Source: Actinomycetota bacterium (GTDB lineage Bacteria > Actinomycetota > CADDZG01 > JAHWKV01). From it: a stretch of DNA of 64,000 nucleotides. Both the position numbers and the translations under genes were made by a program. The notes under the pieces are model-generated. The model was not told the origin of the DNA. It saw only the letters and a list, made by a program, of their open reading frames with translations, and ran no database searches. Every line of letters starts with the position of its first letter. Position 1 is the stretch's first letter. Shown here one piece after another: positions 270 through 38,946 of the stretch. Where the stretch lies: positions 114,459-178,458 of the forward strand of contig JAUJPC010000001.1 in NCBI GenBank assembly GCA_030447305.1. The letters run 5' to 3'.

Positions 270-320
270 GCCCAACGGATTGTCACCCGCCGAAGGCCGG
301 AGAACACTTCTAAGTAGACG
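270..320 (-). other. Degenerate attC site
   Basis: GCCCAACGGAT at 270, the same flank as other attCs; opposite box degraded (GTAGACG near 314). Confidence 0.5.
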
Positions 321-324
321 GCTC

Positions 325-618: not shown

Positions 619-624
619 TACGGA

Positions 625-1071
625 CTACCTAAGGAGAATCGTCTGCACCTGCATTCCAACGCCTACGGGTCGGGCGGTAGCTGTCCGCTGGATCGTATAT
701 GGTCGCCAGCACCTCGCGTACGAGCAATTGAAGATGATGTAGCCCTTCGCGCGATCGGCCGCTGTCGGTTCCCTTTCGATCGCGGCTCCCGTAATCAGAA
801 CCTCGCCGCCGCCGCCCTCAGTGTCCTCGACTGGCCCGTGCATCGCGTAGCGTCCGGTGCGACGAATATCCTGCGCCTTCGGCGACGTTGGGTACATCGT
901 CACGACCAGCCTGCTATCCCGGAGCGTGAACGGACCTACGGGGTGCACCCGGGGCCAACCATCACGCCGCACGGTTGCCAAGAAGCAAGGCGCAGCGGCG
1001 AGGCGTTCCTCGGCATGTTTCGCAAGTTCCGGCTGGCGTTGAGCGAACGTGTTCCAGGGCACTGCCTCCAT
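625..1071 (-). CDS. Pyridoxamine 5'-phosphate oxidase-like (PPOX) cassette protein, probable frameshift near 730
   Basis: FLATVRRDGWPRVHPV and TSPKAQDIRR motifs; a family-like C-terminus (LLVREVLATIY...RRRW) lies in the adjacent frame. Confidence 0.75.
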   Translation of the reverse strand: MEAVPWNTFAQRQPELAKHAEERLAAAPCFLATVRRDGWPRVHPVGPFTLRDSRLVVTMYPTSPKAQDIRRTGRYAMHGPVEDTEGGGGEVLITGAAIEREPTAADRAKGYIIFNCSYARCWRPYTIQRTATARPVGVGMQVQTILLR

Positions 1072-1104
1072 CGGTAATCCTCAGGCCACTCCGGTTCAAG
1101 GACC

Positions 1105-1171
1105 GTATAACGTACCGGCGAATCAGCCGCTGAGAGCTTAGCGACTGGCGGTTTGTATTCGCCAGTTATAC
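1105..1171 (-). other. attC site
   Basis: GTATAAC 1105-1111 ... GTTATAC 1165-1171 with inner palindrome ggcgaat/attcgcc. Confidence 0.9.
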
Positions 1172-1250
1172 AGCTCGCCGACCGAGGCCGGCCTGGCGAC
1201 TTCTCGTGAATACGACTCTGTGGAGCTCCGTCCGCCGTAGGCTGTGGGTC

Positions 1251-1498
1251 ATGAAATCGGACTACGAACGAAAGCGGGCTGAGGACTTTTGGAGTCGTTG
1301 GACAGGCTTTGGGTCGCGACAGACTACCCGGAGTGCCAAGAAATTGCGCTGTACACGGACCAAGAGTTGAAGCAGATCCTCGGCGAATGGGAACAGGTTC
1401 GCAAAGCCTGCGATGCAATCTGGGCCAGGATCCGGGATGCCAGGCCAGACCTTCAGGGATGGGATCCGATCAGTGGCGAGCGTCCACTAGGTCAATAG
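1251..1498 (+). CDS. Hypothetical cassette protein in inverted orientation, probable frameshift near 1288
   Basis: ATG 1251 (MKSDYERKRAEDF) joins ORF 1289-1498 across a T-run. Confidence 0.45.
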
Positions 1499-1534
1499 CT
1501 ACGGCCAAGCAGCATATTCCCGTTCTGTAGGGAT

Positions 1535-1587
1535 CTCAGCATCAGCGGCGCAGGGGAAGCGAGCGCCATTGCATGCGCGAGTCATGC
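1535..1587 (-). other. Degenerate attC site
   Basis: gcatcagcggcg...cgccattgcatgc inner stem and GTCATGC at 1581, one mismatch from the complement of GCATAAC at 2545. Confidence 0.5.
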
Positions 1588-1932
1588 CCACTCCAGGCTC
1601 TCTCCTGCTTTAAGGCCCTCGATGGTTGGAACCACCTGCTGAACGACCGTCCCGAACTGGCCGATGAGCAGGACGACTAAAGTCCAAAAGGCGATCACAG
1701 CACGCGAACGACGAGTCCTAGCTTTGCCGAACAAGCGAAAGACTCCGACAACCACAAGAGTGAAAACAACCGAACTAAGCGCTCTGCCGAGCACTTCGGG
1801 TCCGGGGCCGCCTTGGCGAATACCGGCGGAGAGTGCAAGGAAGCTAGAGACGACCAGGAGGACGGTCGCCGCGATTTCCCATCTTACGGGAGACTTCTCG
1901 CGGGGTCCTTGGGCAGCGTCAAACTCATTCAT
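1582..1932 (-). CDS. Cassette membrane protein with about 3 TM segments
   Basis: 116-aa hydrophobic ORF with AGGAGAG RBS; stop overlaps the attC box. Confidence 0.65.
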   Translation of the reverse strand: MNEFDAAQGPREKSPVRWEIAATVLLVVSSFLALSAGIRQGGPGPEVLGRALSSVVFTLVVVGVFRLFGKARTRRSRAVIAFWTLVVLLIGQFGTVVQQVVPTIEGLKAGESLEWA

Positions 1933-14631: not shown

Positions 14632-16226
14632 TCAGGCCAGGGCCACAAGCTCCAGCAGGTCGTCGGACCAGTGGATGTACTCGCCGTCGGGCATCGACAC
14701 GACATGGGTCGGCTGCAGCTGGTGCACGAAGGCCTCGTCGTGGCTGACGATCATGAGCGTGCCCTGCCAGGACTGCAAAGCATTGGTGATGCCTTCCCGT
14801 GAGATGGGGTCGAGGTTGTTGGTCGGCTCGTCCAGCAGCAGCAGGTTGTGCTGCTTGGCAGCCAGTTGAGCCAGCGCAAGTTTGGTCTTTTCTCCACCTG
14901 AGAGGGTGCCGGCGTTCTGGAACGCCTTGTCGCCGGACAGGGTGAACATGCCCAGGAAGGCCCGAATCTGCTGATCGATCAGCACGCCGTCGGAGCGCAG
15001 ATGGTCGATTACAGCTTCCTCCGGCCGCAAACCCTCGTGCTCCTGGGCGTAGTAGCCGAGCGACACATTCATTCCGGGAGCCACCGTCCCCGAGACCGGC
15101 TCTATCGTCTCCGAGAGGATCTTGAGAAGAGTCGACTTGCCTGCGCCGTTCAGCCCCATGACCAGCAGGCGGTCGCCGTGGGTGACCTCGAACGACAGAC
15201 GATCGAAGACCTTGTGCTCGCCGTAGCTCATCGCAAGGTTTTGCACTCTCATCACCAGGCGGCCCGGCTGCGGAGGAGGCGAGATCCTGAACCGGACGGC
15301 GCTTTCCTTCGCAACCCTGGTGACCTTGGTGGCTCGCATCTTCTCCACCCGCTTGTCCAGGTTCTTGGCGACCCGAGCACGGGAGGCGGTCTGATGGCGC
15401 ATGCGGTCGGCGAGGGTCTTGAGGCGCTGGATGTCCGCTTCCTGGATATTGGCTATCTTGTTGCGCCGCTCGACGTCGGCCGCCCGAGCCTCTCGGTACT
15501 GGCTGTACGTGCCCTTGTAGGTGTTCATCTGACTGTTGTCCAGGTGCAGAACCCGGGTGATGGCCGAGTCGAGCAGCTCCAGGTCATGGCTGACGATCAA
15601 CAGGCCGCCCGAGTACGAGCGCAGGAAGGACATAAGCCACGCCTTGGCATCCACGTCGAGGTGGTTGCTTGGCTCGTCCAGCAGCAGAGTCTCGGCTCGG
15701 CGAACAGAGAGTGCGCCAGCTCGACCCGGCGCCGCTCGCCTCCGGAGAGCGTGTCCATCGGACGGGTCATCTCGTCTCCGGTGATGCCCAGTCCGGCGCA
15801 GATACGCCGGGCCTCGGACTCGGCCTGGTAGCCGCCTGCCAGCCGGAAGTTCTCCTCCGATCGGGTGAAGCGGGCGATATTACGCTCCGACGGGTCCTCC
15901 TCCATTACCTGCTGAAGCTTGGTCAGGCGGTTCTGCGCCTCGGTAAGGTCCCTGCCGGCCAGGACATACTCGAGGGCCGTGGAGAGCTCCTGCCCTGCGT
16001 TCAGCTTGGCCTGGCGCAAATAGCTGTAGGTCCCTTGGAAGCGCACAGACCCCTCGTACTCGACCGCCCCGGCAGCCTCCTGCGACAGGATCGACATCAG
16101 CGTGGATTTACCGGCGCCGTTGCGGCCGACCAGCCCCACCTTGTCTCCGGGTGCGACGTTGAACGACGCGTCGTCGAGCAACAGGCGCGTGCCGATGGAG
16201 ATATGCAGACCTTTGACCTGCAGCAA
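14632..16226 (-). CDS. ABC-F family ATP-binding protein, frameshift near 15695
   Basis: Two ABC domains (GRNGAGKST, LSGGE, GLNGAGKST, DEPTNNLD) and no TM segments. Confidence 0.9.
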
Positions 16227-17092: not shown

Positions 17093-18157
17093 ATGACAAC
17101 TATGGACGAGATAAGGCTCACCCAGTATTCCCACGGCGCCGGCTGAGCTTGCAAGCTCGGTCCCAGTGACCTGGCGCAGGTCGTGCGCCGCTTGGGGGGC
17201 AGAACAGGGAAGGCTGATCCAAACCTTCTCCTGGGCCTCGACGTGCCCGACGACGCTGCCGTCTACCGGATCAACAACGAGACGGCCCTGGTGCAAACGG
17301 TCGACTTCTTCACCCCGGTGGTGGACGACCCCTATCATTGGGGCGCTATAGCGGTGGCCAACGCCATCAGCGACATCTACGCGATGGGGGCGACCCCACT
17401 GACCGGCCTGAACCTGGTTGGCTGGCCGAAGGACCTGGACATGGACCTGCTCGCCCGGGTGCTGGAGGGCGGAGCGGACAAGGCCGATGAGGCGGGGTGC
17501 GCGGTGGTCGGTGGCCACACGGTGGACGACCCCGAACCGAAATTCGGTATGGCGGTGACCGGGATCGTGCATCCGGACAAGATCGTCAAGCTGTCCACGG
17601 CCAGCCCCGGCATGTCGATCATTCTTACCAAGCCCCTCGGGATGGGGATCGTCGCCACCGCCTGCAAGGCGCAGCGGATCGACAAGGCACTGCTGAACCG
17701 GGCTACCAGTATGATGGCAACCCTCAACGCCGGCGCAGGCCAAGCGATGGTTGAGGTGGGCGCCGCTGCCGCCACCGACGTGACGGGATTCGGCCTCATT
17801 GGACACCTGCGGGGGATGCTGGCGGCAAGTGGCTGCTCGGCCAACCTGATGGCAGACAGCGTTCCGATCCTGGCCGGCGTCGACGAGCTCGCAAGGCAGG
17901 GCCTGGTGCCGGGAGGGACTCGACGGAACCGGGATTATTTCGGACCCTTTGTAGACTTCGATGCGGAGATCGACCCCATGTTGAGGGTCATCATGTTCGA
18001 TGCCCAGACGTCCGGAGGACTGCTGATAGTGGTGGAGAGGTCGAAGCAGGAGGCGATGGTGGAGGCTTTGGGCAAGTACGGGACTCCTGAGGCGGCGGTG
18101 ATCGGGCGTATCGCAGACGGTAGCCCGGGCACCATCCGGGTTGCCGGCCGGAAATGA
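17093..18157 (+). CDS. selD: Selenide, water dikinase containing selenocysteine (UGA 17144-17146)
   Basis: MTTMDEIRLTQYSHGAG-U-ACKLGP is in frame with ORF 17183-18157 (DDAAVY, DFFTP, TDVTGFG, DAQTSGGLL). Confidence 0.95.
17168..17182 (+). promoter_or_regulatory. SECIS-like hairpin of selD
   Basis: GACCTG-GCG-CAGGTC starting 21 nt after the UGA, with G in the loop. Confidence 0.65.
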
Positions 18158-22160: not shown

Positions 22161-22805
22161 CTGGAGATAGTTCTGGCCACCGCCAACCCCGGCAAGATCT
22201 CAGAGATAGTCGAGATCATGGGGGATCTGCCGGTTACCTTCATTACCAAGGAGCAGATGCCTGTTTGGCCGGAGATCGTCGAGTCGGGTGACACCTACCT
22301 GGAAAACGCACTCATCAAGGCGAGGTCGCTGGTGGAGTTCTCGGGTAGGGCGTCCATTGCGGACGATTCCGGCATTGAGATCGATGCGCTCGGAGGCGCC
22401 CCAGGAGTTCGTTCCGCCCGCTTTGCCGGTCCCCGTGCCACCGATGAGGAGAACAATCAGAGGATGGTCGAGTTGCTGAGGGACGTCCCTTTAGAGAAGC
22501 GATCGGCAAGGTACCGCTGCCTGGCGGTGCTGGTGATGCCCGACGAGACGCATATCCGGGCGGAGGGGACGTGCGAGGGCACGATCGCCATGGAGCCCAG
22601 AGGGAACAACGGCTTTGGGTACGACCCGTGGTTCATCCCGGAGGGTCAGGAGCAGACCTTCGGGGAGCTCCCGCTCGAGTACAAGCACGCGATAAGTCAC
22701 CGGGGGAAGGCCCTCCGGGAGCTGACCGCAAAGATAAAGGCCTCGCGCCGGTTGTCACCCGATGTCCGCTCCAAAGATCCGGGTAGTGCGGGCGAGAGGA
22801 CTTGA
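22161..22805 (+). CDS. rdgB: dITP/XTP pyrophosphatase, probable CTG start
   Basis: LATANPGK, ADDSG, GFGYDP, SHRG; GGAGG 6 nt before CTG 22161. Confidence 0.92.
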   Translation: MEIVLATANPGKISEIVEIMGDLPVTFITKEQMPVWPEIVESGDTYLENALIKARSLVEFSGRASIADDSGIEIDALGGAPGVRSARFAGPRATDEENNQRMVELLRDVPLEKRSARYRCLAVLVMPDETHIRAEGTCEGTIAMEPRGNNGFGYDPWFIPEGQEQTFGELPLEYKHAISHRGKALRELTAKIKASRRLSPDVRSKDPGSAGERT

Positions 22806-22868
22806 ACCTCCACGGGCTAAGCCCACAGGATCCTAAATCCTGCGCGTCTGCCGTTCCGCCACGCCCGC
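22787..22868 (-). tRNA. tRNA-Leu(TAG)
   Basis: GCGGGCG acceptor, CAGGA-TTTAGGA-TCCTG anticodon arm, long variable arm, GTTCAAGTC. Confidence 0.95.
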
Positions 22869-24337: not shown

Positions 24338-24410
<73 letters not shown>

Positions 24411-26077: not shown

Positions 26078-26154
26078 TGGGGTGACCGACGGGATTTGAA
26101 CCCGCGACATCCCGGACCACAACCGGGTGCTCTACCTGCTGAGCTACGGCCACC
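26078..26154 (-). tRNA. tRNA-His(GTG)
   Basis: G-1 present, CCGG-TTGTGGT-CCGG anticodon arm, GGTTCAAATCC, encoded CCA. Confidence 0.95.
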
Positions 26155-26241
26155 ATGGGGATAGATGCTCCGGTGGAGCACCAAGAATCCCCCAAGATCG
26201 TAGCACCGCGCCGCTTGTCCCAAAGCGCTACCCTTCCCCGC

Positions 26242-27435
26242 ATGCGCAGTTCTGCCGATGTGGTGGTGATAGGGGGCGGGGTGATCGGCTGCGCGATAGC
26301 CGCCGAGCTGGCCGGCTCAGGTGCCGAGGTCCTTCTGCTCGAAGCTCGTGAGATTGCCCATGGAGCTTCCGGCCGCAACCACGGCCTGATCTTCTATCCA
26401 CAGAACCCCATCACCGATCCGCTCTACCGGCTGTCGCATCAGATGTACGGGGAGCTGGCCGCCGGAGGCGACCTGGACATCAGCCTGGACGAGGCCCCCG
26501 TAGGCTTCATCATCCTGGTCGGCAGCGAGCGGCAGTGGGAAGCCGCCGAGATCGAGGCGAGGGCCTGCGAGACCGGCGGGATTCGGGTGGAGCGCCTCGA
26601 CCAGGAGCAGTTGCGGGAAGCCGAGCCCAACGTCTCGCCGGATCTGCTCGGCGGCTGGTACATCGAGGACGGTTACCGCCTGGATCCGAGAGCCCTGACG
26701 CTGGCGCTGGCTCTGTCCGCCCGGGACAAGGGCGCGCAGATCCAAACCCATGTCGACGTCAAGCAGATCGTCGTGCGAGATGCCAGGGTGGCCGGGGTGG
26801 TGTGTGACGAGGGCCCGGTTTTGGCCGGCAACGTGGTGCTCGCGGCGGGCCCATGGTCGGCAAAGCTGGCCCGGCCTGCCGGCATCGACCTTCCGGTGTC
26901 CGGTGCCCGAGGATGGCTTCTTCTCGTATCGCCCAAGGGGATGGTATGCGACCACCTCCTGGAGTCTTCCGGCTGGCACCTTATGGCCGGCGACCCGGGC
27001 CCGGGGGAGGTCACCGTCGGAGCTTACGGGAATGGTCGCCTGCCGGCTCCGGATATCGGTCTGCTAATTCAGCCCAGCGCCAACGGCCACGTCCTGGTCG
27101 GAGGATCGCGCATCCCGTCATTCCGCCAGGACCCCGAGGGGTCGGAGGTTGCGCAGATCATTGCCCGTAAGGCGGTGGCGGCAGTCCCCTCCTTAGCTGG
27201 AGCGCAGGTGCGGGAGGTCTGGTCCGGTGTCCGGCCGATGAGCCGTGACGGCCTTCCGATCCTGGGGTGGGCTCCCGCTGTGGAGGGCCTTTTCATCGCC
27301 ACAGGCCACGGCGGGCAGGGTGTGATGCTGGGCGGGGGCTCTGCGCGCCTGGCTGCAGAGTTGATCACAGGCACGCCGCCGTTCACGTCACCAGCTCCGT
27401 TCGCGGCGGAGCGGGAGTTCTCGTCAACTTCTTAG
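26242..27435 (+). CDS. FAD-dependent oxidoreductase (DAO/glycine-sarcosine oxidase family)
   Basis: GGGVIG, GASGRN, WSGVRPMSRDGLP, TGHGGQG. Confidence 0.88.
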   Translation: MRSSADVVVIGGGVIGCAIAAELAGSGAEVLLLEAREIAHGASGRNHGLIFYPQNPITDPLYRLSHQMYGELAAGGDLDISLDEAPVGFIILVGSERQWEAAEIEARACETGGIRVERLDQEQLREAEPNVSPDLLGGWYIEDGYRLDPRALTLALALSARDKGAQIQTHVDVKQIVVRDARVAGVVCDEGPVLAGNVVLAAGPWSAKLARPAGIDLPVSGARGWLLLVSPKGMVCDHLLESSGWHLMAGDPGPGEVTVGAYGNGRLPAPDIGLLIQPSANGHVLVGGSRIPSFRQDPEGSEVAQIIARKAVAAVPSLAGAQVREVWSGVRPMSRDGLPILGWAPAVEGLFIATGHGGQGVMLGGGSARLAAELITGTPPFTSPAPFAAEREFSSTS

Positions 27436-27480: not shown

Positions 27481-28290
27481 ATGCCTCAAGCGCCTCTCGC
27501 CTATAGCGTCCGCCGGCTCCCAACGCCGGCGGCCGCTCTTTTCGTGCTGATCGGCACAGTGCTGGCGTTTGTTTTGCTTCCCCAGGCGGCGTCCGCTCAG
27601 ACCCCCACTCCGAGCGAGTCGGCGTCGCCGGCCGACAGGCCCGTGCTGGGCATTCTCGGTTTGACGGCCCCGGAAAACCGAGGGGTAACCGTGGCCAGGG
27701 TCGTACCGGATACGGGCGCCGACGAGGCGGGATTGCAGACCGGTGATCTCATCGTGGACCTCGAGGGCAACAGGGTTTCATCCATGGAGGACCTCACGTC
27801 AGCGATGGAGAGGTTCGGGGTGGGGGACGAAGTCACAATCACCTACGAGCGCAATGGCGAAAGAAGGACCGCCGAGGTGGAGCTGGGCTCCAGCCAGCGG
27901 CAGAGGCGTCGGGGCCCGTTCGAGGCAATCCCGGAGCCGGACTTCGGCCCTAACTTTCCCGACCGCCCCGGCGATCCCGACGCGCAGTCGCCCGTCTCTG
28001 GTCCGGACTACCGCCCGGTGATCACGCTGTTTGGGCTTTTGATCACCGGCGCGCTGATCGCAATAATCGTGATACTGGTCAGACAGAACCAGCCTGCCGG
28101 TAAGGCGCCGATTGCCACGGCCGCCTACGTGCCGCCTTCGGGCTCCGCCAAGCGTGCCGATCCCCTGGAGGTGCTTCGCCTGCGCTACGCCCAGGGAGAG
28201 ATCACCCGTGAGGAGTTTCTCTCGATGTCGGCGGACCTGAATGGAGCGCCGAGCGCCCCTCGAGGAGAAAGCCCGACCACCGAGCTCTAG
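27481..28290 (+). CDS. PDZ-domain membrane protein with a C-terminal SHOCT domain
   Basis: GADEAGLQTGDLI PDZ segment, TM helix, LRLRYAQGEITREEF. Confidence 0.8.
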   Translation: MPQAPLAYSVRRLPTPAAALFVLIGTVLAFVLLPQAASAQTPTPSESASPADRPVLGILGLTAPENRGVTVARVVPDTGADEAGLQTGDLIVDLEGNRVSSMEDLTSAMERFGVGDEVTITYERNGERRTAEVELGSSQRQRRRGPFEAIPEPDFGPNFPDRPGDPDAQSPVSGPDYRPVITLFGLLITGALIAIIVILVRQNQPAGKAPIATAAYVPPSGSAKRADPLEVLRLRYAQGEITREEFLSMSADLNGAPSAPRGESPTTEL

Positions 28291-28295
28291 CTACT

Positions 28296-29725
28296 TCAGC
28301 TGTTCCGTTCCAAAAGGACGCTCATTCCATCCGACTGCTGGGACATCCGGCCCAGGAACAGACTGCCCTTGGCCATCAGATGGATCCGCTGGGCGTCTCC
28401 AACGGTGAGCCGCCGCAGCGCATGTGGCAGGTAGCAAACCGCCGATGCGAGGTGGCCTTGAGTGGGGGAGAACCCGGGCATTCCCTTGGTCTCGGCGAAC
28501 TCTCCCATCTGGTCGCGGGAGATGTCGCCCCGGCGAACCGCCAGCCCGGCGATCATCTTGTAGTTGCGCTCCGGCACGTTTCCCGAGCCCTGGGGTTCGG
28601 TGATCTCGGGGTCGTGCAATTCGGTGGCGAAGTCGTCGATATCGGCCATCTTCAGCTCGTTGCGCTCGAGAGGCTCCACCGCCAGGGCTTCCATGATCGC
28701 CTGGTTTGAGCCTCCGGCGGCGATGCGGTGACGTCCCACGGCGTCGAGCCGGATCCGCGGGGAGCTGCCGTCGTCCGGACCGATCAAAAAGGCGCAACCT
28801 CCCACGACGTCCTCCATGACCGGCAGCTCCTTGCTGAGGTGGCCCTGGAACTTCATCCCCAGTTTGGGTAGGGAGCCTCCGGCGGCGACGGCCACCCGCT
28901 GGAAGACTCCGGCTTTCACCAGTGCAGCAGCCATGACAAGAGCCGGAACCGGGGCGGCGCAGAAGTTCTTCACATCGGCGCCCGAGGCCTGCCTGAGCCC
29001 GGCGGCGTCGGCCATCGCCTTCGCCATGTTCCCTCCACCCCGCTGGTAGCGGTCGCCAACCGCCTCCTCGGAGCAAGAAATGACGTACTCGATGCTCTCG
29101 GGGTCGACGTCGTTGTCCTCCAGCAGGTGCATCAGAGCCAGGGCGCCGCTCGCCTTGTTGACAAGGTTCTCGAGCATCACGTTTGCGGCGAGGGACTCAT
29201 CCTCGTGGTGGGGACACTGAACGGTCCCGACGACGTCCTCCACCGGCCAGTACAGGTTCAGGGCGCCCTTCGTGCCGGCCTTGCCCTCCAGCCCCCGATC
29301 GCCGACGGCCTCCAGGCGGTCAAGGTCGAAGCGTTTGGAGAACGGATGGGATGACAGTCCGCCGGCCGCCCGGCCGGCGGCCTCGGACGTCAAGGCGATC
29401 AGGTCGAACTCGTCAACCGCCGCCATGAGGCCGAGAAACTCCGCCTCCGGCATGATCTCGCCGTCGGGTCCGAACCGGGACGCGCCTTCCATGCATAGGG
29501 TGGCCCGAGGGCGCTCGGGCATCTGGCGGGGGTGGATCGATCCCAGGTACGCCTGGTGGGATGGGTAGCCGGTGGCCTGGTCGAAGCTGCGGAGGCTGGA
29601 CAGGAATCGCTCTTGAATCTCAGGGTTCTTGGGCAGCTCACGGCCGGCTTGGAGCCGTGGCGCGCCATGCCGGGAAGGTGGGCCAGCACCTGAGAGGCGG
29701 CTGTTATTACAGGGTTATCGCTCAT
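28296..29725 (-). CDS. grdC: Glycine/sarcosine/betaine reductase component C, FabH-like subunit; frameshift near 29645
   Basis: HHEDESL..MLENLVNKASG, CSEEAVGDRYQRGGGN, NFCAAP, GSGNVPERNYKMI, PTQGH, KGSLFLGRM. Confidence 0.9.
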
Positions 29726-29732
29726 CGGGCTC

Positions 29733-31037
29733 CTAGTTCCTGATAGGTCTTGAGGGTTGGAAGACGGTTGGTTTGCTGACCGGCGTGGATACGGCCTTCA
29801 AGGCGGTCTCAAGCAGCGCCCGCCGCCACGCCTTCTCTTCATTGGTATCGAGTGCCGGGTCGCCGGCGGGGTACGGGATGCCCCGGGTCGGCACTACCCG
29901 GGGAGCGCCTACCCTAAGCGCGATCGGAACGAGGTTGCACAGAAGGGCGGTGGGTATTCCTGCCCTCTCCAACTCCTTGGCAAGCGTTGACCCGCAACGC
30001 GTACCGGTCCCTCAGGTCGAGGTAAGGATGGCGGCCTGCACTCCAGCCTTGCGGAGCTCGGCGGCCCATTCCACGCCGTAGCGCGCCCCGTTGGCCACGG
30101 AGGTTCCGTTTCCCACGGTGACGAAGTACTCCGCATACAGATTCCCGATCGCTCCCTCGTCCTCCAGCTCTCGGGCGACGTCCAGCGGAAGAATGCGGTT
30201 GGGGTCGGCGTTGGCGAAGATCGTCGAGAATCCCCCGTGGACCGAGACGTGGGATCCTTCCTCCAAGCCGGGCAGCTCCTCCAGCGGGTAACGCAACCAC
30301 TTGGTTGACCGAGCCGACTCCAGCCGGCCCGGGTTGCCGGCGGGTACCAGCCCCCCTTCGGTGAGAAGCGCCACCAGCGCCTGCGACGGGTCGGCGATAG
30401 GTCCGGCGGGCGACACCGCGCCGAAGTCGGGCATGGGGATCTCGGTGGCCTGCCGGTCTCCCGCCAGGCGGGCAAGCGCCAGGTCGACGGCCCGGGAGGC
30501 CGCGTTGGCGTCCACCAGCCGGTTGAGGCGGGGAATGCCGCCGACCAGTCCGTCATCGGCCGTCAGGGCTTCACCCGCGGCCATCTTGAGGGCTGCTTTG
30601 GCGACCCTGTCGAGGGTCGTTCCCATCTCCCGGGCGGTGAGACCCGTGCCCACAACCGGCGCCGGGGCGGCCTCCGCCACGCCCGGATTCTCGGCGTGCA
30701 TGGCGGCCAGGGCCACCAGACCCGCTTCCTTGGCGGCCTTGGCGACCCGCCCACACACAATCCCGTAGCGCCCGCTGGTGAAGGCCGGTCCGGCAATCAG
30801 CATCTCGGCGCCCGTGTTACGGAGAAGCTCGACGATCTCATCCGTGGCGCCCTCCTTCGAGGCGGCGTAGTCGTCGCCGCAGAAAACGGTGGCGACGATC
30901 TGGTGCTCTGCACCGAGTAAGGAGGCGAGCTTGCGGCTGGGACCGGTGGGGGCCTCCCGGACCTCGGGGCCGATACCCGCCTTGTCCTCTCCGCCGACTC
31001 CGGCGAAAAACTGGTTGACGTAGTGGACGATCCTCAT
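29733..31037 (-). CDS. grdB: Reductase selenoprotein B (UGA 30012-30014 read as Sec)
   Basis: HYVNQFFAGVGGEDKA, AGPAF, HGGF, DPNRILPLD; ILTST-U-GTGTRCG continues in frame into ORF 29733-29972. Confidence 0.93.
29984..30000 (-). promoter_or_regulatory. SECIS-like hairpin of grdB
   Basis: GCGTTG-CGGGT-CAACGC beginning 11 nt after the UGA. Confidence 0.7.
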
Positions 31038-32314
31038 GCCGGAGCCTCCGTTGCGCAGGTGAGCCGGCCCCAGCCGATCGGGCTGAGACTGCCGTAGACA
31101 GCGGCCACCGGCAGGGTCATCTCGGCCTTGGCGTCCAACCCGTTGAGGTCGACGACCTCACCGCCCAGAGCGTTGTCGACGGCGTCCAGGGTGATCCGCT
31201 CGTCGTAGTTGCCGGTGCTGACCATGGCGGTTGCGGTGGTGGGTGGGGCGACCAGGGGCGGCCCCAGGCCTTCGGGACCGCTCATCTCGGCGAAGATGCC
31301 GATTCCGACGAGTCCCATCGACTCCAGCGCGTCGACCTTCAGGGAGATGTCCGAGTCGGCGTTGCCGCCGCCCTCTTTGGTGACGATCGCGGCGTCCAGC
31401 CCGAGCTGGCGCGCCAGCCGGGCGGCGTGCGCGGAGGTCAGCTCCTTCAGGGTCTGGTCGACCGGCTCGGGTGACAGGATCACGCCGCCGAAGGTCAGGT
31501 TTCTGCCATTCCTTTCCCGCAGGGCGGCAACGACCGGGTTGTTCTGGTGCACAAAGGTGGGGTTCTTGAGGGCCGGATGGCCGTACTGGCCGCTTACCAC
31601 GGCGCCGTCGTCCAGCTCGTTGGGATCGATGGCGGTCGGGAGCGAGTTCGCCATAGTCCGGCCGTAAACGAAGACGTCCTTGAAAGCACCCTGCGTCTGC
31701 AGGTTGATGATGGTCCCCACCCGGGGAAGGTCAGAGTCAGACCTTGGATCGAGGGCCGCCAGCTTTTCGACTCCGTCGGGCCTGATGTCCAGGGCCAGCT
31801 CGGCCAGTGCCACGGCCACCCGCATTGCTCCCAGTCGTAGCGCCTCGTCGACCTGGGTCCACGAGGCGCCCTCGGCTGGTGCGAACTCGATCACCAGATT
31901 GTTGGTGGAGCCGAGAAACGAGAGCTCGGCCGTCGGACCGGACATCTGCACCATGCCCTCCTGCGCTCGGGGAAGCTTGCCGGCAACCACAACCGCAGCA
32001 CCTTTCAGCACGTGGGTAACGCCCTCGCCCTGAGCGGTGGCGGGACCCAGGAACCCCGGGAAGATGCCGGCTCCGCCGGGGCCTTTGGTGCGGGGCTCCA
32101 TGGAGTCGAGGATCTTAATGATTCGCACGCTCTCGCCGGGCCGTGCCCAGGACAGCCGGGTCGAGGCGAGTGCAGGGCTCCTGAGCAGGGCCTGAAGTTC
32201 TTCTTCCGAAACGACAAGGTTTCCACCGCTCAGTCCGGCTGCATCTCCAAACTCCGCATGGCGAACATGGTGAACCAACCGTTCCAGGCCCTTGAAGCCG
32301 TTCTCTTCAGCCAC
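31034..32314 (-). CDS. grdE: Reductase component B alpha/beta proprotein (GrdE/GrdI-like)
   Basis: ARPGESVRI, THVLKG, PNELDDGAVVSG, KNPTFVHQNNP, EGGGNADSD, VSTGN. Confidence 0.85.
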   Translation of the reverse strand: MAEENGFKGLERLVHHVRHAEFGDAAGLSGGNLVVSEEELQALLRSPALASTRLSWARPGESVRIIKILDSMEPRTKGPGGAGIFPGFLGPATAQGEGVTHVLKGAAVVVAGKLPRAQEGMVQMSGPTAELSFLGSTNNLVIEFAPAEGASWTQVDEALRLGAMRVAVALAELALDIRPDGVEKLAALDPRSDSDLPRVGTIINLQTQGAFKDVFVYGRTMANSLPTAIDPNELDDGAVVSGQYGHPALKNPTFVHQNNPVVAALRERNGRNLTFGGVILSPEPVDQTLKELTSAHAARLARQLGLDAAIVTKEGGGNADSDISLKVDALESMGLVGIGIFAEMSGPEGLGPPLVAPPTTATAMVSTGNYDERITLDAVDNALGGEVVDLNGLDAKAEMTLPVAAVYGSLSPIGWGRLTCATEAPA

Positions 32315-32400
32315 GAATCCTCCGTCAAGCGTCTCAGCTCAGAATTCTGACGTCGTATCCCCACAGATTACCGAGATGCGGCAGTCCCTTGCAGATGTCC

Positions 32401-33822
32401 CTACTTAAATTGGTGCTTCAGGGCGGACCGGGCGGCAAAATGGCCGCACATTCCGTGCACGCCGCCGCCGGGCGGGGTGGACGAAGAGCACAGATACAGA
32501 CCGTCGATCGGCGTGGAGTAAGGGTCCACCCGGGGCACCGGACGGGTGAAGAGCTGCCGGATGTCTTGCACCCCCCCGTTGATATCGCCCCCGACGTAGT
32601 TGGGGTTGTGGCGCTCGAGCTCTGCCGGGCTTCGCGTCGTGCGGGCGAGGATCAGGTCCTTGAAGCCGGGAGCGGCCCGTTCGATCTGGTTCTCTATCGC
32701 CTCGGTCATGTCCACCGGGTAGCCGTTGGGGACGTGGCAGTAACCCCAGAGTGTGTGCTTGCCCTCAGGCGCTCGGGAGGGGTCCGGCACGCTCTGCTGG
32801 GCGATGATGCAGTACGGCCGGTCGATGTGCCGTCCCTCCCAGAGTGCCCGCTCGGAAGCGGCTATCTGCTCGAAGGTTCCACCGAGATGAACCGTTCCCG
32901 CCTCCCGGCAGAGCCGGTTCTTCCAGGGGACCGGCCCGTCCAGGGCCCAGTCGACCTTGAACACCGACGGCCCGTAACGGTAGCGCCGGAGCAGAAACAG
33001 GTAGGGCTTGGGAAGCCGGTCGCCTGCAATATCTTCGAGCTGGCGGGGACCGAGATCCAGCAGAGCTGCCCGGTGCTGAGGCAGGTCGTTGAGATTCTTC
33101 ACCGGGCGATCCGTCACGACCCGGCCCCCCAGCGACTCCAGGATCGACCTCATCGCCTCGGCCAGGTTCTGGGTCCCCCCCTTGACGACCGGCCACCCGA
33201 CGGCGTGGCCCAGAATCGCCAGAATCAGGCCAAAGCCGCCGGTCGCCAGACGGTCGAGCGGCAAGAGGGAGTGCGCGGCCACGCCACCGAGAAGGGCACG
33301 GGTACGGTCGTCCTCGAACATCGTTGTGAGCCCCTTGGCTGAGCGAATGGCATGGACGCCGAAGCGGCCCGCAGCTATCGGGTGGCGCGGCGGGCGGAAG
33401 GGCCCAAGGAACTGGTCAACCAGATGAAGGTAGGACCGCACGAAGGGTGCCATGAGCTTCACGTAATCGTCGGCGTCCCGCCCCAGATGTAAAGCGGTCT
33501 GGGGGACCGACATCTCCAGGGCGGCAATACGGCCGTCATCCAGCGGGTGAGCCACCGGCAGTTTGGGCGGCAGCAGCTCCAGCCCGTGCTCCGCAAGCGG
33601 CAGTGACGCCAGGAACGGCGAGGCGACGGCCAGCGGGTGGATGGCGGAGCAGATGTCGTGTACGAATCCGGGAAGCGTGAGCTCCGCGGATCGCATGCCG
33701 CCCCCGATCACCGGCTCCGCCTCGATGACCTGCACCGACAGGCCTTTTTGAGCCAGGGTGATCGCGGCTGCCAGCCCGTTAGGGCCGGAACCGACTACGA
33801 CGGCATCGAAGCTCTCGGACAC
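32401..33822 (-). CDS. Phytoene dehydrogenase-like FAD oxidoreductase
   Basis: GSGPNGL, HDICSAIHP, STPPGGGVHGMCG. Confidence 0.88.
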   Translation of the reverse strand: MSESFDAVVVGSGPNGLAAAITLAQKGLSVQVIEAEPVIGGGMRSAELTLPGFVHDICSAIHPLAVASPFLASLPLAEHGLELLPPKLPVAHPLDDGRIAALEMSVPQTALHLGRDADDYVKLMAPFVRSYLHLVDQFLGPFRPPRHPIAAGRFGVHAIRSAKGLTTMFEDDRTRALLGGVAAHSLLPLDRLATGGFGLILAILGHAVGWPVVKGGTQNLAEAMRSILESLGGRVVTDRPVKNLNDLPQHRAALLDLGPRQLEDIAGDRLPKPYLFLLRRYRYGPSVFKVDWALDGPVPWKNRLCREAGTVHLGGTFEQIAASERALWEGRHIDRPYCIIAQQSVPDPSRAPEGKHTLWGYCHVPNGYPVDMTEAIENQIERAAPGFKDLILARTTRSPAELERHNPNYVGGDINGGVQDIRQLFTRPVPRVDPYSTPIDGLYLCSSSTPPGGGVHGMCGHFAARSALKHQFK

Positions 33823-33901
33823 GGTGCGTTCAGACTAGGTCAACCGGCGGGCCGCTGCATGTCGTAAGTTGTTAATGAACGTCGGAACCTAACGGAGGAT
33901 T

Positions 33902-34735
33902 TTGATGACTGGACAGAGGGTTGGATTTCAGGGGGAGGCCGGCGCCTACAGCGAGAAGGCGGCACGGTTTTTGTTTCCCGAAGCGACCCTGGTTCCGTTC
34001 AAGTCCTTCCATAAGGTCTTCGAGGCCACCGAGATAGGAGCAACCGACTTCGGCGTGGTTCCCCTGGAGAACTCCCACGCCGGGTCGATCAACGACTCCT
34101 ACGATCTGCTGGTCAGGCACGGGGTTCAGATAGTCGCGGAGACCATCGTGCGGATCCATCACTGCCTGCTGGCGCCGGAGGACGTGGATATCACCGAGGT
34201 CAACTACGTCTACTCGCACCCCCAGGCGCTGGAGCAGTGCGAGGAGTTCCTCGACAGCCTTCGGGCCGACCGGATAGCCGTCTACGATACCGCCGGGGCC
34301 GCCAAGCTGATCGCCGAAGAAAACAAGCCGGGTTCCGCTGCGATCGCCTCGGAGGACGCCGGGAGCCTCTATGCGCTGAAGGTCCTGGAACGCAACATCG
34401 AGGACCGAGCCGACAACTCTACCAAGTTCGTGGCGATAAGCCGGAGTGCCACCGACCAGATGGGCCCGCCGCAGAAAACCTCGATAGTGTTCGCCACGGC
34501 TAACATTCCGGGTGCCCTCTACGAGTGCTTGAAGGAATTTTCAGATCGGAAGTTGAACCTGACCAAGCTGGAGAGCCGCCCGTCCGGGGCCAAGGCCTGG
34601 CAGTACCACTTCTACCTGGACTTCGACGCTGCCACCAAAGACCCGATCGCCCAGGACCTGCTGGCCGCGCTGGCGGCACAGACATCGTTTTTGAGGGTCC
34701 TGGGCTCCTACCCGCACGCAGCGAAGACTACCTAA
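33902..34735 (+). CDS. pheA: Prephenate dehydratase
   Basis: QGEAGAYSE, PLENS, SHPQAL, ACT domain with ESRP. Confidence 0.93.
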   Translation: MMTGQRVGFQGEAGAYSEKAARFLFPEATLVPFKSFHKVFEATEIGATDFGVVPLENSHAGSINDSYDLLVRHGVQIVAETIVRIHHCLLAPEDVDITEVNYVYSHPQALEQCEEFLDSLRADRIAVYDTAGAAKLIAEENKPGSAAIASEDAGSLYALKVLERNIEDRADNSTKFVAISRSATDQMGPPQKTSIVFATANIPGALYECLKEFSDRKLNLTKLESRPSGAKAWQYHFYLDFDAATKDPIAQDLLAALAAQTSFLRVLGSYPHAAKTT

Positions 34736-35511: not shown

Positions 35512-36963
35512 TTAGTGCCCCGCTGATACTCCCGATAGCTCCTTCACTACGTCCCCGATGTAGCCCTTGGCGTCTCCGAAGAGCATCATCGTCTTGTCCA
35601 TGAAGAACAGCTCGTTTTCGACACCCGCGAAACCCGCCGACATACCTCGCTTGACCACCATGACGGTCTGGGCTTGATCGGCGTTCAGGATCGGCATGCC
35701 GAAGATCGGGCTGGTCTTGTCCGTTCTTGCGGCCGGGTTGACCACGTCGTTGGCTCCGATGATCAGAGCGACGTCCGTTTGCGGGAAGTCGGAGTTGATC
35801 TCGTCCATGTCGATCAGCCGGTCGTACGGGATGTCGGCCTCGGCGAGAAGCACGTTCATGTGCCCGGGCATGCGGCCCGCCACCGGGTGGATGGCGAATC
35901 GGACGTCGACCCCCCGCTTGGTCAGGACGTCGTACAGCTCACGCACCTTGTGCTGCGCCTGAGACACCGCCATACCGTAACCCGGGATGACGATGACCGA
36001 CTCCGAGTTCTCCAGCATCTGAGCCGTCTCCTCCGGGCTGATGTTGCGCACGGAGCGCTCCTCGACCTGGCCGTCCTTGATGTGGGCGACCGCCCCGAAC
36101 CCTCCGAACAGCACATTGGTGAACGACCGGTTCATCGCCTTGCACATGATGATCGACAGGATCAGACCCGAGGTTCCATCCAATGCACCGGCGATGATGA
36201 GCAGCTTGTTGTCCAGCGCGAAGCCCATGGCGGCTGCCGATAGTCCCGCGTAGCCATTCAGCAGGGCGATGACGGTAGGCATGTCGGCGCCGCCGATCGG
36301 AACGATAAGCGCTATTCCGAAGATCAGCGTCAGGCCGATAAGCCAGGGGAACAGGTGGGCGGCCTCCGGGTTGACCACCAGGTAACCCGCGATCAGCACC
36401 GAAGCCCCGAAGACGCCCAGGTTGATGAAGTTCTGACCGGGATACAGGATCGGCTTGCCCGGCAGAATGCCCTGCAACTTGCCGAACGCCATCAGCGATC
36501 CGGTGAATGTCAGGTACCCGAGGACCACCTCGAAGCCGATGGCGGTCAGCGCAACCTTGGAGAGGTTGGGGCCGTGCAGGTAGAACTCGGCCGTTCCCAC
36601 CAGCCCGGCCGCCAGGGCGCCCAGAGCGTGTGAGAAAGCGGTACGTTGCGGAACCGCGGTCATCTTCATCAGGAGGGCCAGCGGGGCGCCGATTAGCGCT
36701 CCGATTACCATCGCGATAGCAATCCACTTGAACTCGACGATCTCTTCCTTCAGCAGCGTGCCCACCACGGCAAGCAGCATGCCGATCTCGCCGGCCTTGA
36801 CGCCCTTCCGGGCGGTGCTTGGGTGGCTGAGCCACTTCAAAGACATGATGAAACCGACGGCCGAGACGAGGTAGATCAGGTCGATCCAGCGCGCAATTCC
36901 CGTTGCGGCGGCTCCGGTAGATTCCGGAGCGGAAACAGCTAGGAAGGTAACAAGTTCGTTCAT
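35512..36963 (-). CDS. pntB: NAD(P) transhydrogenase beta subunit
   Basis: GGADMP, PGYGMAV, HPVAGRMPGHMNVLLAE, GANDVVNP. Confidence 0.97.
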   Translation of the reverse strand: MNELVTFLAVSAPESTGAAATGIARWIDLIYLVSAVGFIMSLKWLSHPSTARKGVKAGEIGMLLAVVGTLLKEEIVEFKWIAIAMVIGALIGAPLALLMKMTAVPQRTAFSHALGALAAGLVGTAEFYLHGPNLSKVALTAIGFEVVLGYLTFTGSLMAFGKLQGILPGKPILYPGQNFINLGVFGASVLIAGYLVVNPEAAHLFPWLIGLTLIFGIALIVPIGGADMPTVIALLNGYAGLSAAAMGFALDNKLLIIAGALDGTSGLILSIIMCKAMNRSFTNVLFGGFGAVAHIKDGQVEERSVRNISPEETAQMLENSESVIVIPGYGMAVSQAQHKVRELYDVLTKRGVDVRFAIHPVAGRMPGHMNVLLAEADIPYDRLIDMDEINSDFPQTDVALIIGANDVVNPAARTDKTSPIFGMPILNADQAQTVMVVKRGMSAGFAGVENELFFMDKTMMLFGDAKGYIGDVVKELSGVSAGH

Positions 36964-37256
36964 GACTTGGCCGGCCCCCTCGTCTTGAACATCTTCAGCA
37001 TCCGGTCGGTGATGAGGAATCCACCTACGACGTTGGCGAACGATGCGGCGACCGCAATTGTGCCGAGAACGGTGGCGAAGGGAGCCTGAGCCGAGCCCGC
37101 CAAGATCAGCGACCCGACCAGAGAGATGGCTGCGATGGCGTTGGTCAACGACATCAGAGGCGTGTGGAGCAGCACGGAGACCCGGCTGATCACCTGGTAT
37201 CCGAGGAAGGCAGCCAGCACGAAGACGTACAGGCTGTTGGTGAGCGACTCATCCAT
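36960..37256 (-). CDS. pntAB: NAD(P) transhydrogenase alpha part 2
   Basis: LHTPLMSLTNAI, NVVGGFLITDRML. Confidence 0.95.
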   Translation of the reverse strand: MDESLTNSLYVFVLAAFLGYQVISRVSVLLHTPLMSLTNAIAAISLVGSLILAGSAQAPFATVLGTIAVAASFANVVGGFLITDRMLKMFKTRGPAKS

Positions 37257-37307
37257 TGGAAGCGGTTTCCCCCCTTCAGTAGGAGATCGGTGACTTTGCT
37301 GGGATCA

Positions 37308-38597
37308 TCAGCTGGCTGCGGTCTCGGGTTTAACGGCGCCGTTGGACGTGCCCTCCGGCGGAGCCACACGCAACTCGGCCGTGCCGTCGGGCTTGGCGGG
37401 CCCGGGCGTCTCGGCGGTGGCGGCCGACGGGGCTTCCAGACCCAGCGCCTCCCTCAGCCGGGGAAGCACAACCTCGCCGTCCCTGGCAAGCAGCGTCTCG
37501 ACGGTGATCTGGTCCTCCATGTCCCACTGAAAGGCACCGTCCTTCACCAGGTGGGTCAGGAAGGTGACCAGGTTCTTCGCGTACATGGAGCTGGCGTGGT
37601 ACGGAACCGTCGCCGGGAGGTTGGTGGGTCCCATGATCGTCACATCGTTGACGACGATGGTCTCGTTGGCCTTGGTTAGCTCGCAGTTGCCACCGCGCTC
37701 AGCCGCAAGGTCGACGATGACCGACCCCGGCTGCATCTTCTTCACCATCTCCTCGGTAATGAGCACGGGGGACTTCTTGCCCGGAATGGCGGCGGTGGTG
37801 ATAACCACGTCGATGTTCTCCACCACGCTGGTCATCAGCTCACGCTGTTTGCGCAGGAAGTCCTCGCCCATCTCCTTGGCGTATCCGCCCTTGTCCTCGG
37901 CCTCTCCGGCCTCCAACTCCATCTCGACGAACTTGGCCCCGACTGATACAACCTGCTCCTTCACCGCCGCACGAACGTCGTACGCCTGCACGACGGCACC
38001 CAGCCGCTTCGCGGTGGCGATGGCCTGTAGGCCGGCTACGCCGGCGCCGATCACGAAGACCTTGGCCGGCCGGACGGTCCCGGCGGCGGTGGTAAGCATG
38101 GGGAACATCTTGGGCATGTTCGCCGCTGCGACGAGAACCGCCTTGTATCCGCCAACCGTCGCCTGCGACGACAACACGTCCATGCTCTGCGCGCGGGTGA
38201 TCCGGGGCATCAGCTCGATGGACAGGATGGTGGCACCGGTCTTGGCCATCTCCTGAACGCCGGCAGCGTTGCCCAGCGGGTCCGTCAATCCGATGATCAC
38301 CTGATCCTTGCGCATGAGAGAAAGGTCGTCCCGGCCCTTTTCGGGGTTAGCTCCGAATGTCTGGACCTGCAGCACCACGTCGGCTCCGAAAGCTTCCGCG
38401 CGCGTGCCGATGGTGGCGCCCTTCTCCTCGTACTCCGCGTCCGGAAAGCCGGCTGCCTGGCCCGCGCCGGATTCAACGATCGTTTTCATTCCTGCCTTGG
38501 ACAAGGCCTGTAATACTCCCGGCACCAAGGCCACCCTGGCCTCGCCCGGGAAGGTTTCGGTTGGCACGCCAACCGTCAGCTGCGGGTCCTCCGCCAC
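37308..38597 (-). CDS. pntAA: NAD(P) transhydrogenase alpha part 1
   Basis: RITRAQSMDVLSSQ, GAGVAGL, GGYAK, DLAAERGGNC; AAGGAGG RBS. Confidence 0.96.
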   Translation of the reverse strand: MAEDPQLTVGVPTETFPGEARVALVPGVLQALSKAGMKTIVESGAGQAAGFPDAEYEEKGATIGTRAEAFGADVVLQVQTFGANPEKGRDDLSLMRKDQVIIGLTDPLGNAAGVQEMAKTGATILSIELMPRITRAQSMDVLSSQATVGGYKAVLVAAANMPKMFPMLTTAAGTVRPAKVFVIGAGVAGLQAIATAKRLGAVVQAYDVRAAVKEQVVSVGAKFVEMELEAGEAEDKGGYAKEMGEDFLRKQRELMTSVVENIDVVITTAAIPGKKSPVLITEEMVKKMQPGSVIVDLAAERGGNCELTKANETIVVNDVTIMGPTNLPATVPYHASSMYAKNLVTFLTHLVKDGAFQWDMEDQITVETLLARDGEVVLPRLREALGLEAPSAATAETPGPAKPDGTAELRVAPPEGTSNGAVKPETAAS

Positions 38598-38946
38598 TTT
38601 CCACCTCCTTAAATGATGCAAACCCTCGGCGGGCACTGTCACCGGACCCTCGAAGGCGCGGTGAAGACGCGTAAAAAGTGCTTGCGTAGGCTACTGGAAA
38701 CAGGGGTGTGAAATCATCTTTCGCCACGCCTAAATTCGGCGGCAGGAATTGTGCCTGACGGTGCGACGACCTCAACCCCGGTTGGTTGCCGCTCGCCGGT
38801 ATTGCCTTATACTTTTTGTACAGAGTTTCCAAAGCGTTTTGGGCGCAAAGAGTTTTAGACAAAGTGGGCTTGCTCTTGCATCCGCGTCGGGTTTGTCTGT
38901 GTTCCCGGGCGGGGAAGTGCGCCGGTCCGGGTGACAACTTAAGGAG

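Follow-up and report, generated by a model that had tools for sequence, protein, structure and literature searches.

A three-gene grd cluster (positions 28296 to 32314, minus strand) was analyzed in a window of 64,000 nucleotides, G000:C4:114459-178458, which is the whole stretch of DNA considered here and belongs to the genome of an Actinomycetota bacterium (2.88 Mb, 7 contigs, about 65% G+C, 97.96% complete). Judging from its homologs, the cluster encodes that half of a Grd-type selenoenzyme system which binds the substrate and accepts the acyl group. We are highly confident of the joint claim that it has its place in a separate actinobacterial clade and that its partner GrdA is supplied in trans. 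On balance, the evidence points to a Grd-type reductase that would work without a pyruvoyl group, with GrdA in trans and, probably, with a product other than acetyl phosphate. An earlier description of the window from its letters alone, called the original prediction below, had seen in grdE-grdB-grdC a minimal, variant glycine/betaine reductase-like cluster. The features on which the argument rests are given in window coordinates.

28296..29725, minus strand: grdC, thiolase-fold component C beta, about 476 aa with the missing base restored (NF040746)
28434..28436, minus strand: clade-specific Cys431 of GrdC, six residues past the invariant His425
28959..28961, minus strand: Cys256 of GrdC (NFCAAP; full-length numbering), thiolase-fold nucleophile by alignment
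29645..29646, no strand: assembly indel site, GG on the plus strand of the window and GGG in short-read contigs
29733..31037, minus strand: grdB-type selenoprotein B, 434 aa (PF07355, 366 bits; TIGR01918, 439.3 bits, cut-off 65.45)
29984..30000, minus strand: SECIS-type hairpin GCGUUG-CGGGU-CAACGC, 11 nt 3' of the UGA
30012..30014, minus strand: UGA selenocysteine (Sec) codon, residue 342, motif U-G-T-G-T-R-C, the single in-frame TGA
31034..32314, minus strand: grdE-like gene, substrate-binding subunit of "protein B", 426 aa, GTG start (PF09338, 337.6 bits)
31574..31597, minus strand: codons for VSGQYGHP (residues 240-247 of the GrdE-like protein), in the place of the pyruvoyl-forming site
17093..18157, plus strand: selD, selenophosphate synthetase, with its own in-frame UGA at 17144-17146 (..HGAGUACKLGP..), found by tblastn with the SelD of L016 (46% identity)

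The grd cluster of the window

The minus strand carries four co-directional genes, which encode an FAD oxidoreductase, the GrdE-like protein, GrdB and GrdC. The stop of the grdE-like gene and the start of grdB overlap as ATGA, and the tight linkage of the three grd genes described before is thus confirmed. Their dN/dS values lie between 0.07 and 0.26 (compared with L006, L009 and L011). At the level of sequence, GrdE-like, GrdB(Sec) and GrdC proved intact and under purifying selection.

By its matches to TIGR01918 and PF07355, GrdB is a member of the Grd/Prd selenoprotein B superfamily. It stays below the cut-offs of all subtype models: TIGR01917 (410.3 vs. 602.2 bits, with 731-786 bits for the controls L085, L107, L110, L115, L121 and L122), NF040794 for GrdF (422.7 vs. 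800) and NF040795 for GrdH (377.4 vs. 775). The PrdB model TIGR04483 gives 79 bits at a cut-off of 300. The reference subtypes used here (glycine GrdB, GrdF, GrdH) were assigned by these NCBIfam models, and GrdE and GrdI were typed through their partner.

The Sec region of GrdB reads TSTUGTGTRCGST, with a Gly where the UxxCxxC motif has its middle Cys; two Tissierellaceae glycine reductase loci read UGTCTRC. The deviating motif had been noticed in the window before, and it recurs: the TGA and UGTGTRC are present in 69/69 clade loci that reach the region. The hairpin behind the UGA is identical in 45/45 distinct sequences, including the synonymous positions, while neighboring synonymous positions vary. 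Its covariation is not countable because the alignment is invariant. The Rfam model SECIS_4 matches at 29974-30011 with 22 bits (E 0.02), which is under its gathering score (38), and the 71 nt behind the UGA, folded as a single sequence, did no better than shuffles (z-score 0.43). Recurrence and an invariant hairpin are not expected by chance, and on this evidence the in-frame UGA is a selenocysteine codon. The Sec machinery is present in the genome, with selA and selB on contig C3, the tRNA-Sec on C7 and selD in the window. The selD gene lies about 10 kb away from the grd genes and, by its read-through translation, encodes a selenoprotein as well; ORF calling begins only at 17183.

For the GrdE-like protein, the best NCBIfam match is sarcosine_GrdG (NF040793), with 224.8 bits at a cut-off of 780. 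The model of the fluoroacetate reductase subunit FarE (NF053623) gives 132 bits at a cut-off of 675. In the alignment, Gln243-Tyr244 fall on the self-cleaving Asn-Cys of glycine-type GrdE (VSGNCVSA, cleaved between N and C). The reading VSGQYGHP in place of the Cys-containing site, as pointed out in the original prediction, is therefore real, and it is a property of the whole clade: all 70 sequences, window included, have Gln followed by Tyr (42) or Phe (28) at the Asn-Cys position. The family alignment shows SGNCV[SA]AC in GrdE and GrdG-like proteins, SGSFMP in GrdI and SGQ[YF]GHP in the actinobacterial clade. Since the Cys is missing, no pyruvoyl group should be formed at the usual site.

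GrdC reaches 524.6 bits with NF040746 (cut-off 450), and 552.7 bits over the open frame. As assembled, however, grdC is split into an ORF at 28296-29522 (408 aa) and the first 28 codons from the ATG at 29725 in another frame, which leaves the first 68 codons out of frame. The spacing between landmarks in grdC is 204 nt in seven relatives and 203 nt in the window, and the missing base could be placed in AAGCC-GGCCG. The cluster was compared with Logan contigs of four public soil/rock metagenome runs. One contig of run X1 (2949 nt) has zero other differences over 28200-29701 and one extra G behind 29645. The same extra G was found in two contigs of X2 and one of X3. It restores the GrdC frame (..SKPGRELPK..) with a length like that of the relatives. 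A point on the other side is that a single study supplied X1-X3 and that X1 is possibly the source sample, so that these contigs represent independent assembly and not independent biology. Even so, the frameshift is very probably an assembly artefact. A decaying remnant, with a frameshifted grdC and with trx and grdA lost from the locus, would explain the assembled gene without its first 68 codons in frame. This is highly improbable, as the missing base is present in short-read contigs of three runs, one of them free of other differences over 1.5 kb, as dN/dS is 0.07-0.26, and as neither the Sec codon nor the SECIS hairpin nor the catalytic Cys is damaged.

Clade membership and the location of grdA

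At least 2195 database proteins match at E ≤ 1e-20. Related loci were taken from the 80 listed of 278 matches, and titles among the loci listed are those of metagenome-assembled genomes (MAGs) alone. In addition, 401 Actinomycetota genomes including G000 were searched as a sample of the phylum. A GrdB-family gene, with one TGA each, was found in 15 of them; the other 14 carriers are all at least 91% complete (G396 and G584 among them are unpublished). Five close relatives, G211-G215 (G215 unpublished), were searched as whole genomes.

The GrdB tree comprises 44 rows, namely the window, 21 clade members spanning the 70-odd sequences of the clade, 19 reference or unclassified sequences and 3 PrdB-like outgroups. 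It was calculated by IQ-TREE with the LG+C20 model and a careful search, and it is read as unrooted, given an outgroup branch of 4.2 changes per column. The actinobacterial GrdB clade has a support of 100/99 and is joined by the unclassified MAG L094 (UGTGTRS) at 97/95. Together with three uncharacterized Binatia/Thermodesulfobacteriota clades it forms a group at 91/88, which stands apart from glycine-type GrdB, from the GrdF-like proteins (100/100) and from GrdH (96/100). The comparison with GrdB, GrdF, GrdH and PrdB that had been suggested for the window thus places its clade outside all three reductase types. In a quick tree of the GrdE family (22 rows, 3 partial sequences dropped) the actinobacterial clade is supported with 100, and Firmicute GrdE with GrdG-like proteins and GrdI with 99. 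Because the clades are separate, the loss of the Cys would be independent of that in GrdI.

By these relationships, the cluster of the window belongs to a distinct clade which is patchily spread in aerobic soil Actinomycetota. Lineages with the operon occur in Solirubrobacterales, Thermoleophilia and Acidimicrobiales. All traits by which we define this clade are found in it: UGTGTRC, Q-[YF]-GHP, Cys431 of GrdC, the lack of GrdD and monophyly.

The absence of grdA, grdD and trxA/trxB from the window could be verified, as all genome-wide matches fall outside C4:114459-178458. However, the cluster is not minimal. A selenocysteine-encoding grdA is located on the same contig about 617 kb away, at C4:763266-763709. 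It is the sole match of PF04723 and NF040748 (192.7 bits with the latter, cut-off 130), with one TGA and the motif ECFVUT (CxxU with Sec), and it stands alone beside thiE and sufT. All 5 close relatives (4/4 without G215) have grdA on a different contig from grdB; its site is the same in each, with thiE/sufT on one side and a DUF11 protein on the other. For orf599 downstream of grdA, DUF11 was the sole match. Since grdA is kept elsewhere at a conserved site, the system is split and not minimal. The thioredoxin part is likewise encoded at other places, with trxB at C3:39514-40446 and several trx genes in the genome, none of them linked to grd; the relatives have a trx in the operon.

GrdA was over the cut-off in 14/14 other Actinomycetota carriers. 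In 3/3 carriers from the window's family it lies on a contig other than that of grdB, and in 11/11 others the two genes share a contig at a distance of up to about 3 kb. Gene order was counted in those 58 related loci that have a complete grdC followed by 1.5 kb or more of DNA. The order grdE-grdB-grdC-trx-grdA, in which trx encodes a 113-aa thioredoxin (PF00085), is present in 51 of them. The remaining seven, L006, L008-L012 and L070, are without trx-grdA and represent the window's own lineage; the three-gene form therefore does recur, as the original prediction had asked, but only there. This lineage is nested inside five-gene lineages in the GrdB tree, from which it follows that the three-gene form should be a derived split. 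The five-gene order grdE-grdB-grdC-trx-grdA is, by its distribution, the ancestral operon. The window thus adds a lineage-specific rearrangement (split operon, GrdA in trans) and not a new system.

These data also bear on the idea of a self-sufficient three-gene system, with direct handoff of the carboxymethyl group from GrdB to the FabH-like GrdC without GrdA. It draws on the three genes being linked alone here and in 7 related loci, and on purifying selection in the three-gene state. Nevertheless it is very improbable: a Sec-containing grdA has been kept at one conserved site in the own genome and 5/5 relatives, grdA is present in all 14 other carriers, and the unlinking is derived, with trx-grdA in the ancestral operon (51/58). 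Nothing was found that points to such a handoff. A complete grdA/grdD/trx locus elsewhere, together with proteins that group with ordinary reductases, had been named as the outcome that would speak against a variant enzyme. Only its first element was found, in the form of the distant grdA; there is no grdD, no complete locus and no grouping with ordinary betaine or glycine reductases.

Possible substrate, product and mechanism

The search of the genome for grdA and grdD that the original prediction called for gave the grdA described above and no grdD. In the 97.96%-complete genome, GrdD was found neither by NF040747 nor by PF02504 nor by tblastn with the GrdD of L085. It was over the cut-off in 0/5 whole genomes of the relatives and in 0/14 other Actinomycetota carriers. 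Sub-threshold matches had 20-33 bits (four of 24-33 bits among the 14), like those in control genomes. By tblastn, GrdD is present in 2 of the 80 related loci, both from Tissierellaceae. The own genome further has no match for acetate kinase (AckA, TIGR00016) and none for PTA_PTB (PF01515). As a side aspect, the missing match to PF02504, the family of PlsX, means that phospholipid synthesis in G000 must start another way. Two genes for subunit I of cytochrome oxidase (COX1) were found in the genome, and COX1 was detected in 14/14 other carriers. With its cytochrome oxidases the host is indeed outside the usual anaerobes, as had been stated for the window.

GrdC is the proposed acyl acceptor. 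Its Cys256 is invariant in 47/47 GrdC proteins of the clade and in 2 Tissierellaceae GrdC, and it aligns with the active-site Cys of the KAS III 1mzj and the thiolase 8gqg. At position 431, 96% of the 47 GrdC proteins compared within the clade have Cys, and the two Tissierellaceae GrdC have Pro. The predicted structure of the L006 GrdC (89% identical) has a thiolase-superfamily fold (pLDDT 90, pTM 0.92). A two-copy model of GrdC reached a score of 0.95, compared with 0.00 for the best of 3 controls, with a contact agreement of at least 75% and a partner pLDDT of at least 89; this mark is reached by 20/30 proteins solved as pairs of one chain and by 1/23 single-chain proteins. The modeled interface runs through residues 243-274, around Cys256. 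The dimer score may just mirror the likeness to the thiolase-fold dimers that are common in the PDB.

Taking the lack of GrdD and of the pyruvoyl Cys, the UxxGxxC motif and the separate clade together, a different substrate and product release are reasonable. It is rather likely that the substrate is neither glycine nor sarcosine, and a product other than acetyl phosphate is slightly favored. As to the different substrate or new pathway of the original prediction, the parts that stand are the difference of this enzyme from the clostridial Grd system and, as a reasonable idea, another substrate; the direct transfer from GrdB to GrdC found no support.

The following sequence of events is proposed as the most likely one. 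GrdE-like and GrdB would bind a compound of the type X-CH2-COO- without Schiff-base activation, so that the substrate should carry a self-departing leaving group, for example an onium group as in glycine betaine. Sec342 of GrdB would attack the alpha-carbon, and the carboxymethyl group would then move to the Sec of GrdA. The GrdA Cys would resolve the selenoether, and the acetyl equivalent would be caught by Cys256 of a GrdC homodimer, with Cys431 possibly assisting the acetyl release. As the genome is without GrdD, acetate kinase, phosphotransacetylase and the PlsX family, release is expected to occur as acetyl-CoA or acetate and not as acetyl phosphate. Oxidized GrdA would be re-reduced by housekeeping Trx/TrxB here and by the operon-encoded Trx in most relatives. 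In its full form we offer this only tentatively: a pyruvoyl- and GrdD-independent C-X cleavage of betaine or another onium-, halo- or sulfo-acetate, in which a GrdC homodimer (Cys256/His425/Cys431) releases acetyl-CoA or acetate, and which could serve carbon assimilation or an NADPH-driven hypoxic electron sink.

Several points weigh against this proposal. The clostridial enzyme proceeds through an acetyl thioester and phosphorolysis on GrdD, and we know of no precedent for acetyl release by GrdC alone. AckA was over the cut-off in 4/14 carrier genomes and in 16/42 MAGs reached via the related loci, the completeness of which is not known (G243 among them is unpublished), and acetyl phosphate is therefore possible in these. 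The formation of a pyruvoyl group from another residue of the GrdE-like protein would be a conceivable alternative. The GrdI-like aromatic residue at the Cys position is at best convergent, since GrdI appears to have arisen within the Firmicute GrdE/GrdG proteins. Finally, the genes that flank the operon in 73 loci include no conserved transporter, regulator or catabolic enzyme, so that the neighbors do not name the substrate.

An ordinary glycine or sarcosine reductase that still reduces glycine, and that either does without the pyruvoyl Cys, the middle Cys and GrdD or has unrelated proteins in their place, is unlikely. It would fit with GrdA, GrdC, Trx and TrxB all being encoded in the genome, and with a ThiO-like FAD oxidase nearby (26155-27435). 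The motifs of the subtypes give evidence on both sides. Glycine-type GrdB is characterized by AHGGxD, GPxF[NF]AGRYG, TxGNxTxV and YxNx6GGE..CGD, and GrdF by IHGGYDR..TTGTGT (Nobu et al., 2022, PMC9751293). Measured by these motifs, GrdB of the window keeps TxGNxTxV and YxNx6GGE..CGD, but it reads VHGGFS for AHGGxD and GPAFTSGRYG for GPxF[NF]AGRYG, both of which therefore deviate from the glycine type; at the place of the GrdF motif it has VHGGFS..TVGNGT. Further arguments against a glycine reductase are the TIGR01917 score (410 vs. 602), the replacement of Asn-Cys in 70/70 sequences, the position of the clade outside the glycine-type clade and the lack of GrdD, AckA and Pta in the own genome.

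A true betaine reductase, functionally equivalent to GrdH/GrdI and releasing trimethylamine from glycine betaine in soil Actinomycetota, deserves somewhat more weight and is still improbable. The GrdE-like protein resembles GrdI in lacking Asn-Cys and in having an aromatic residue there (SGSF in GrdI, SGQY/F here), and many clade members carry "betaine reductase" as their automatic JGI name. However, the NF040795 score (377 vs. 775) is the lowest of the three subtype models, GrdB and the GrdE-like protein are outside the GrdH and GrdI clades, the GrdH motifs UGTCTRC and TIHAG[FY]DP..TVGTGT are not present in GrdB of the window, and no betaine transporter is conserved at the locus.

What distinguishes the preferred reading, a non-pyruvoyl reductase with GrdA in trans, is a Grd branch without the acetyl-phosphate subunit, the pyruvoyl site and the middle Cys, in respiring soil bacteria often without acetate kinase. 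As a consequence, the Sec-carboxymethyl chemistry would be reused for another purpose. The automatic "glycine/betaine reductase" labels in soil metagenomes are probably misleading. Should betaine be the substrate, trimethylamine would have an unrecognized source in these abundant soil lineages, and if the release of acetyl-CoA or acetate is true, Grd chemistry would be uncoupled from substrate-level phosphorylation. As the genome of the window is near-complete, it can be stated at the level of a whole genome that GrdD, AckA, Pta and the PlsX family are absent.

Neighboring genes and comparison with known systems

The surroundings of the cluster contain the following features.

22787-22868, 24338-24410 and 26081-26153, minus strand: three tRNA genes (Rfam, gathering score)
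26155-27435, convergent, downstream of the cluster: ThiO-like FAD oxidase
27481-28290, convergent, downstream of the cluster: PDZ protein
32401..33822, minus strand: FAD/NAD(P)-binding oxidoreductase of the amine-oxidase/phytoene-desaturase superfamily (PF13450, PF01593)
35512-38642, minus strand: pntA/pntB operon, proton-translocating NAD(P) transhydrogenase, 3 kb upstream of the cluster

The gene of the FAD oxidoreductase precedes grdE at a distance of 86 nt in the same orientation and may be co-transcribed with it. It is found upstream of grdE in 7/9 loci of the subclade, while the remaining 2 have no upstream DNA, and it adjoins grdE solely in that lineage whose operon no longer includes trx and grdA. 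In this lineage it could conceivably act as a replacement electron donor. The dN/dS values of the gene are 0.10-0.27. The protein shows weak matches to the CrtO/CrtI family only, and among PDB sequences distant ones to phytoene dehydrogenase and putrescine oxidase (E 3e-5 or weaker). A gene for prephenate dehydratase and pntAB are located upstream of the cluster, and pntA/pntB could be a candidate for NADPH supply.

The genes next to the related loci were clustered with a GC3 filter against spurious antisense ORFs in high-GC DNA. After selA, selD and selB are set aside, the neighbors seen most often are a rhodanese, a response regulator and a protein of the glyoxalase fold, and each of them occurs in only 5-6 of the 73 loci. 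A scan of 28000-34200 for promoters and terminators, which is uninformative in GC-rich DNA, gave one promoter-like site (0.6 expected) and no terminator. With Rfam at the gathering score, the three tRNAs alone were found in the whole window, and no riboswitch upstream of the grd cluster. Two further observations come from the locus L002. At 15480-16022 (plus strand; G000:C4, about 768.5 kb) it carries a 180-aa ORF with an HNH-type match to IscB/Cas9d models (49 bits, far under the cut-offs), and at 311-1777 (minus strand) a gene for a SagB-family peptide dehydrogenase (TIGR03605, 142 bits) adjoining a MerR-type regulator.

In literature searches no paper was found on a GrdD-less, UxxGxxC, non-Cys Grd clade. 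Two selenoproteome papers (PMC13188914 and PMC1794560) contain, in the parts available, no mention of a GrdD-less or UxxGxxC form.

Among the closest known systems is the glycine reductase of the Peptostreptococcales/Tissierellales type, for which the operon trxB-trxA-grdE-grdA-grdB-grdC-grdD of L085 was used. Homologous GrdE, GrdB (with the same Sec position), GrdC and GrdA (CxxU) are present in both systems, with an identity of 43-47% for GrdB, GrdC and GrdA and about 36% for GrdE (tblastn, either direction). Dependence on thioredoxin would be a common property, as implied by the operon Trx of the window's relatives. In contrast to glycine reductase, the system of the window is without GrdD and without the Asn-Cys site, has UxxGxxC for UxxCxxC and carries the extra Cys431 in GrdC. 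The gene order is E-B-C-(trx-A) in the clade and E-A-B-C-D in glycine reductase, and grdA is unlinked in the window's lineage. Among the characteristics of glycine reductase (EC 1.21.4.2), GrdA and GrdC were found, whereas a TIGR01917 match over the cut-off, Asn-Cys, UxxCxxC, GrdD and acetate kinase were not. Grd enzymes are selenoenzymes that conserve energy in strict anaerobes, and it is the formation of acetyl phosphate that makes them valuable. The hosts of the clade, unlike those of glycine reductase, have cytochrome oxidases and are often without acetate kinase.

The betaine reductase GrdH/GrdI (L103-L105, of which GrdH passes NF040795) resembles the window system in its alpha subunit, which likewise lacks the cleavage Cys and has an aromatic residue there. 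Both subunits, however, fall into separate clades from those of the window, and UxxCxxC is conserved in GrdH. The classical betaine reductase uses the same GrdA and GrdC/GrdD as glycine reductase. As an internal reference, the Tissierellaceae MAG G006 contains both a canonical glycine reductase operon (L085/L091) and a GrdI/GrdH pair (L104/L095) over the cut-off of the betaine model. The D-proline reductase PrdA/PrdB and the fluoroacetate reductase are members of the same superfamily, with scores far under the cut-offs.

Further relatives are the uncharacterized GrdB/GrdE clades of Binatia, Thermodesulfobacteriota and an unclassified MAG (L092-L100, L094), which group with the actinobacterial clade at 91/88 and are all without Asn-Cys. 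Three full-length GrdB paralogs per genome with differing Sec motifs (UGTSTRS, UGTCTRC, UGTCSRS) were observed in Binatia and Thermodesulfobacteriota (L092/L093, L096/L097 and L099/L100, which with L094 come from the genomes G008, G009 and G010), with 3 GrdB matches over the cut-off each in G008 and G009. The GrdB proteins of L092-L100 and L094 are below every NCBIfam subtype cut-off, and their partners are GrdE-like proteins without Asn-Cys. By tblastn with the window proteins, no grdC or grdA was found within 8 kb of these loci. Their U motifs differ (UGTSTRS, UGTCSRS, UGTCTRC, UGTGTRS), and L094, like the clade of the window, reads UGTGTR.

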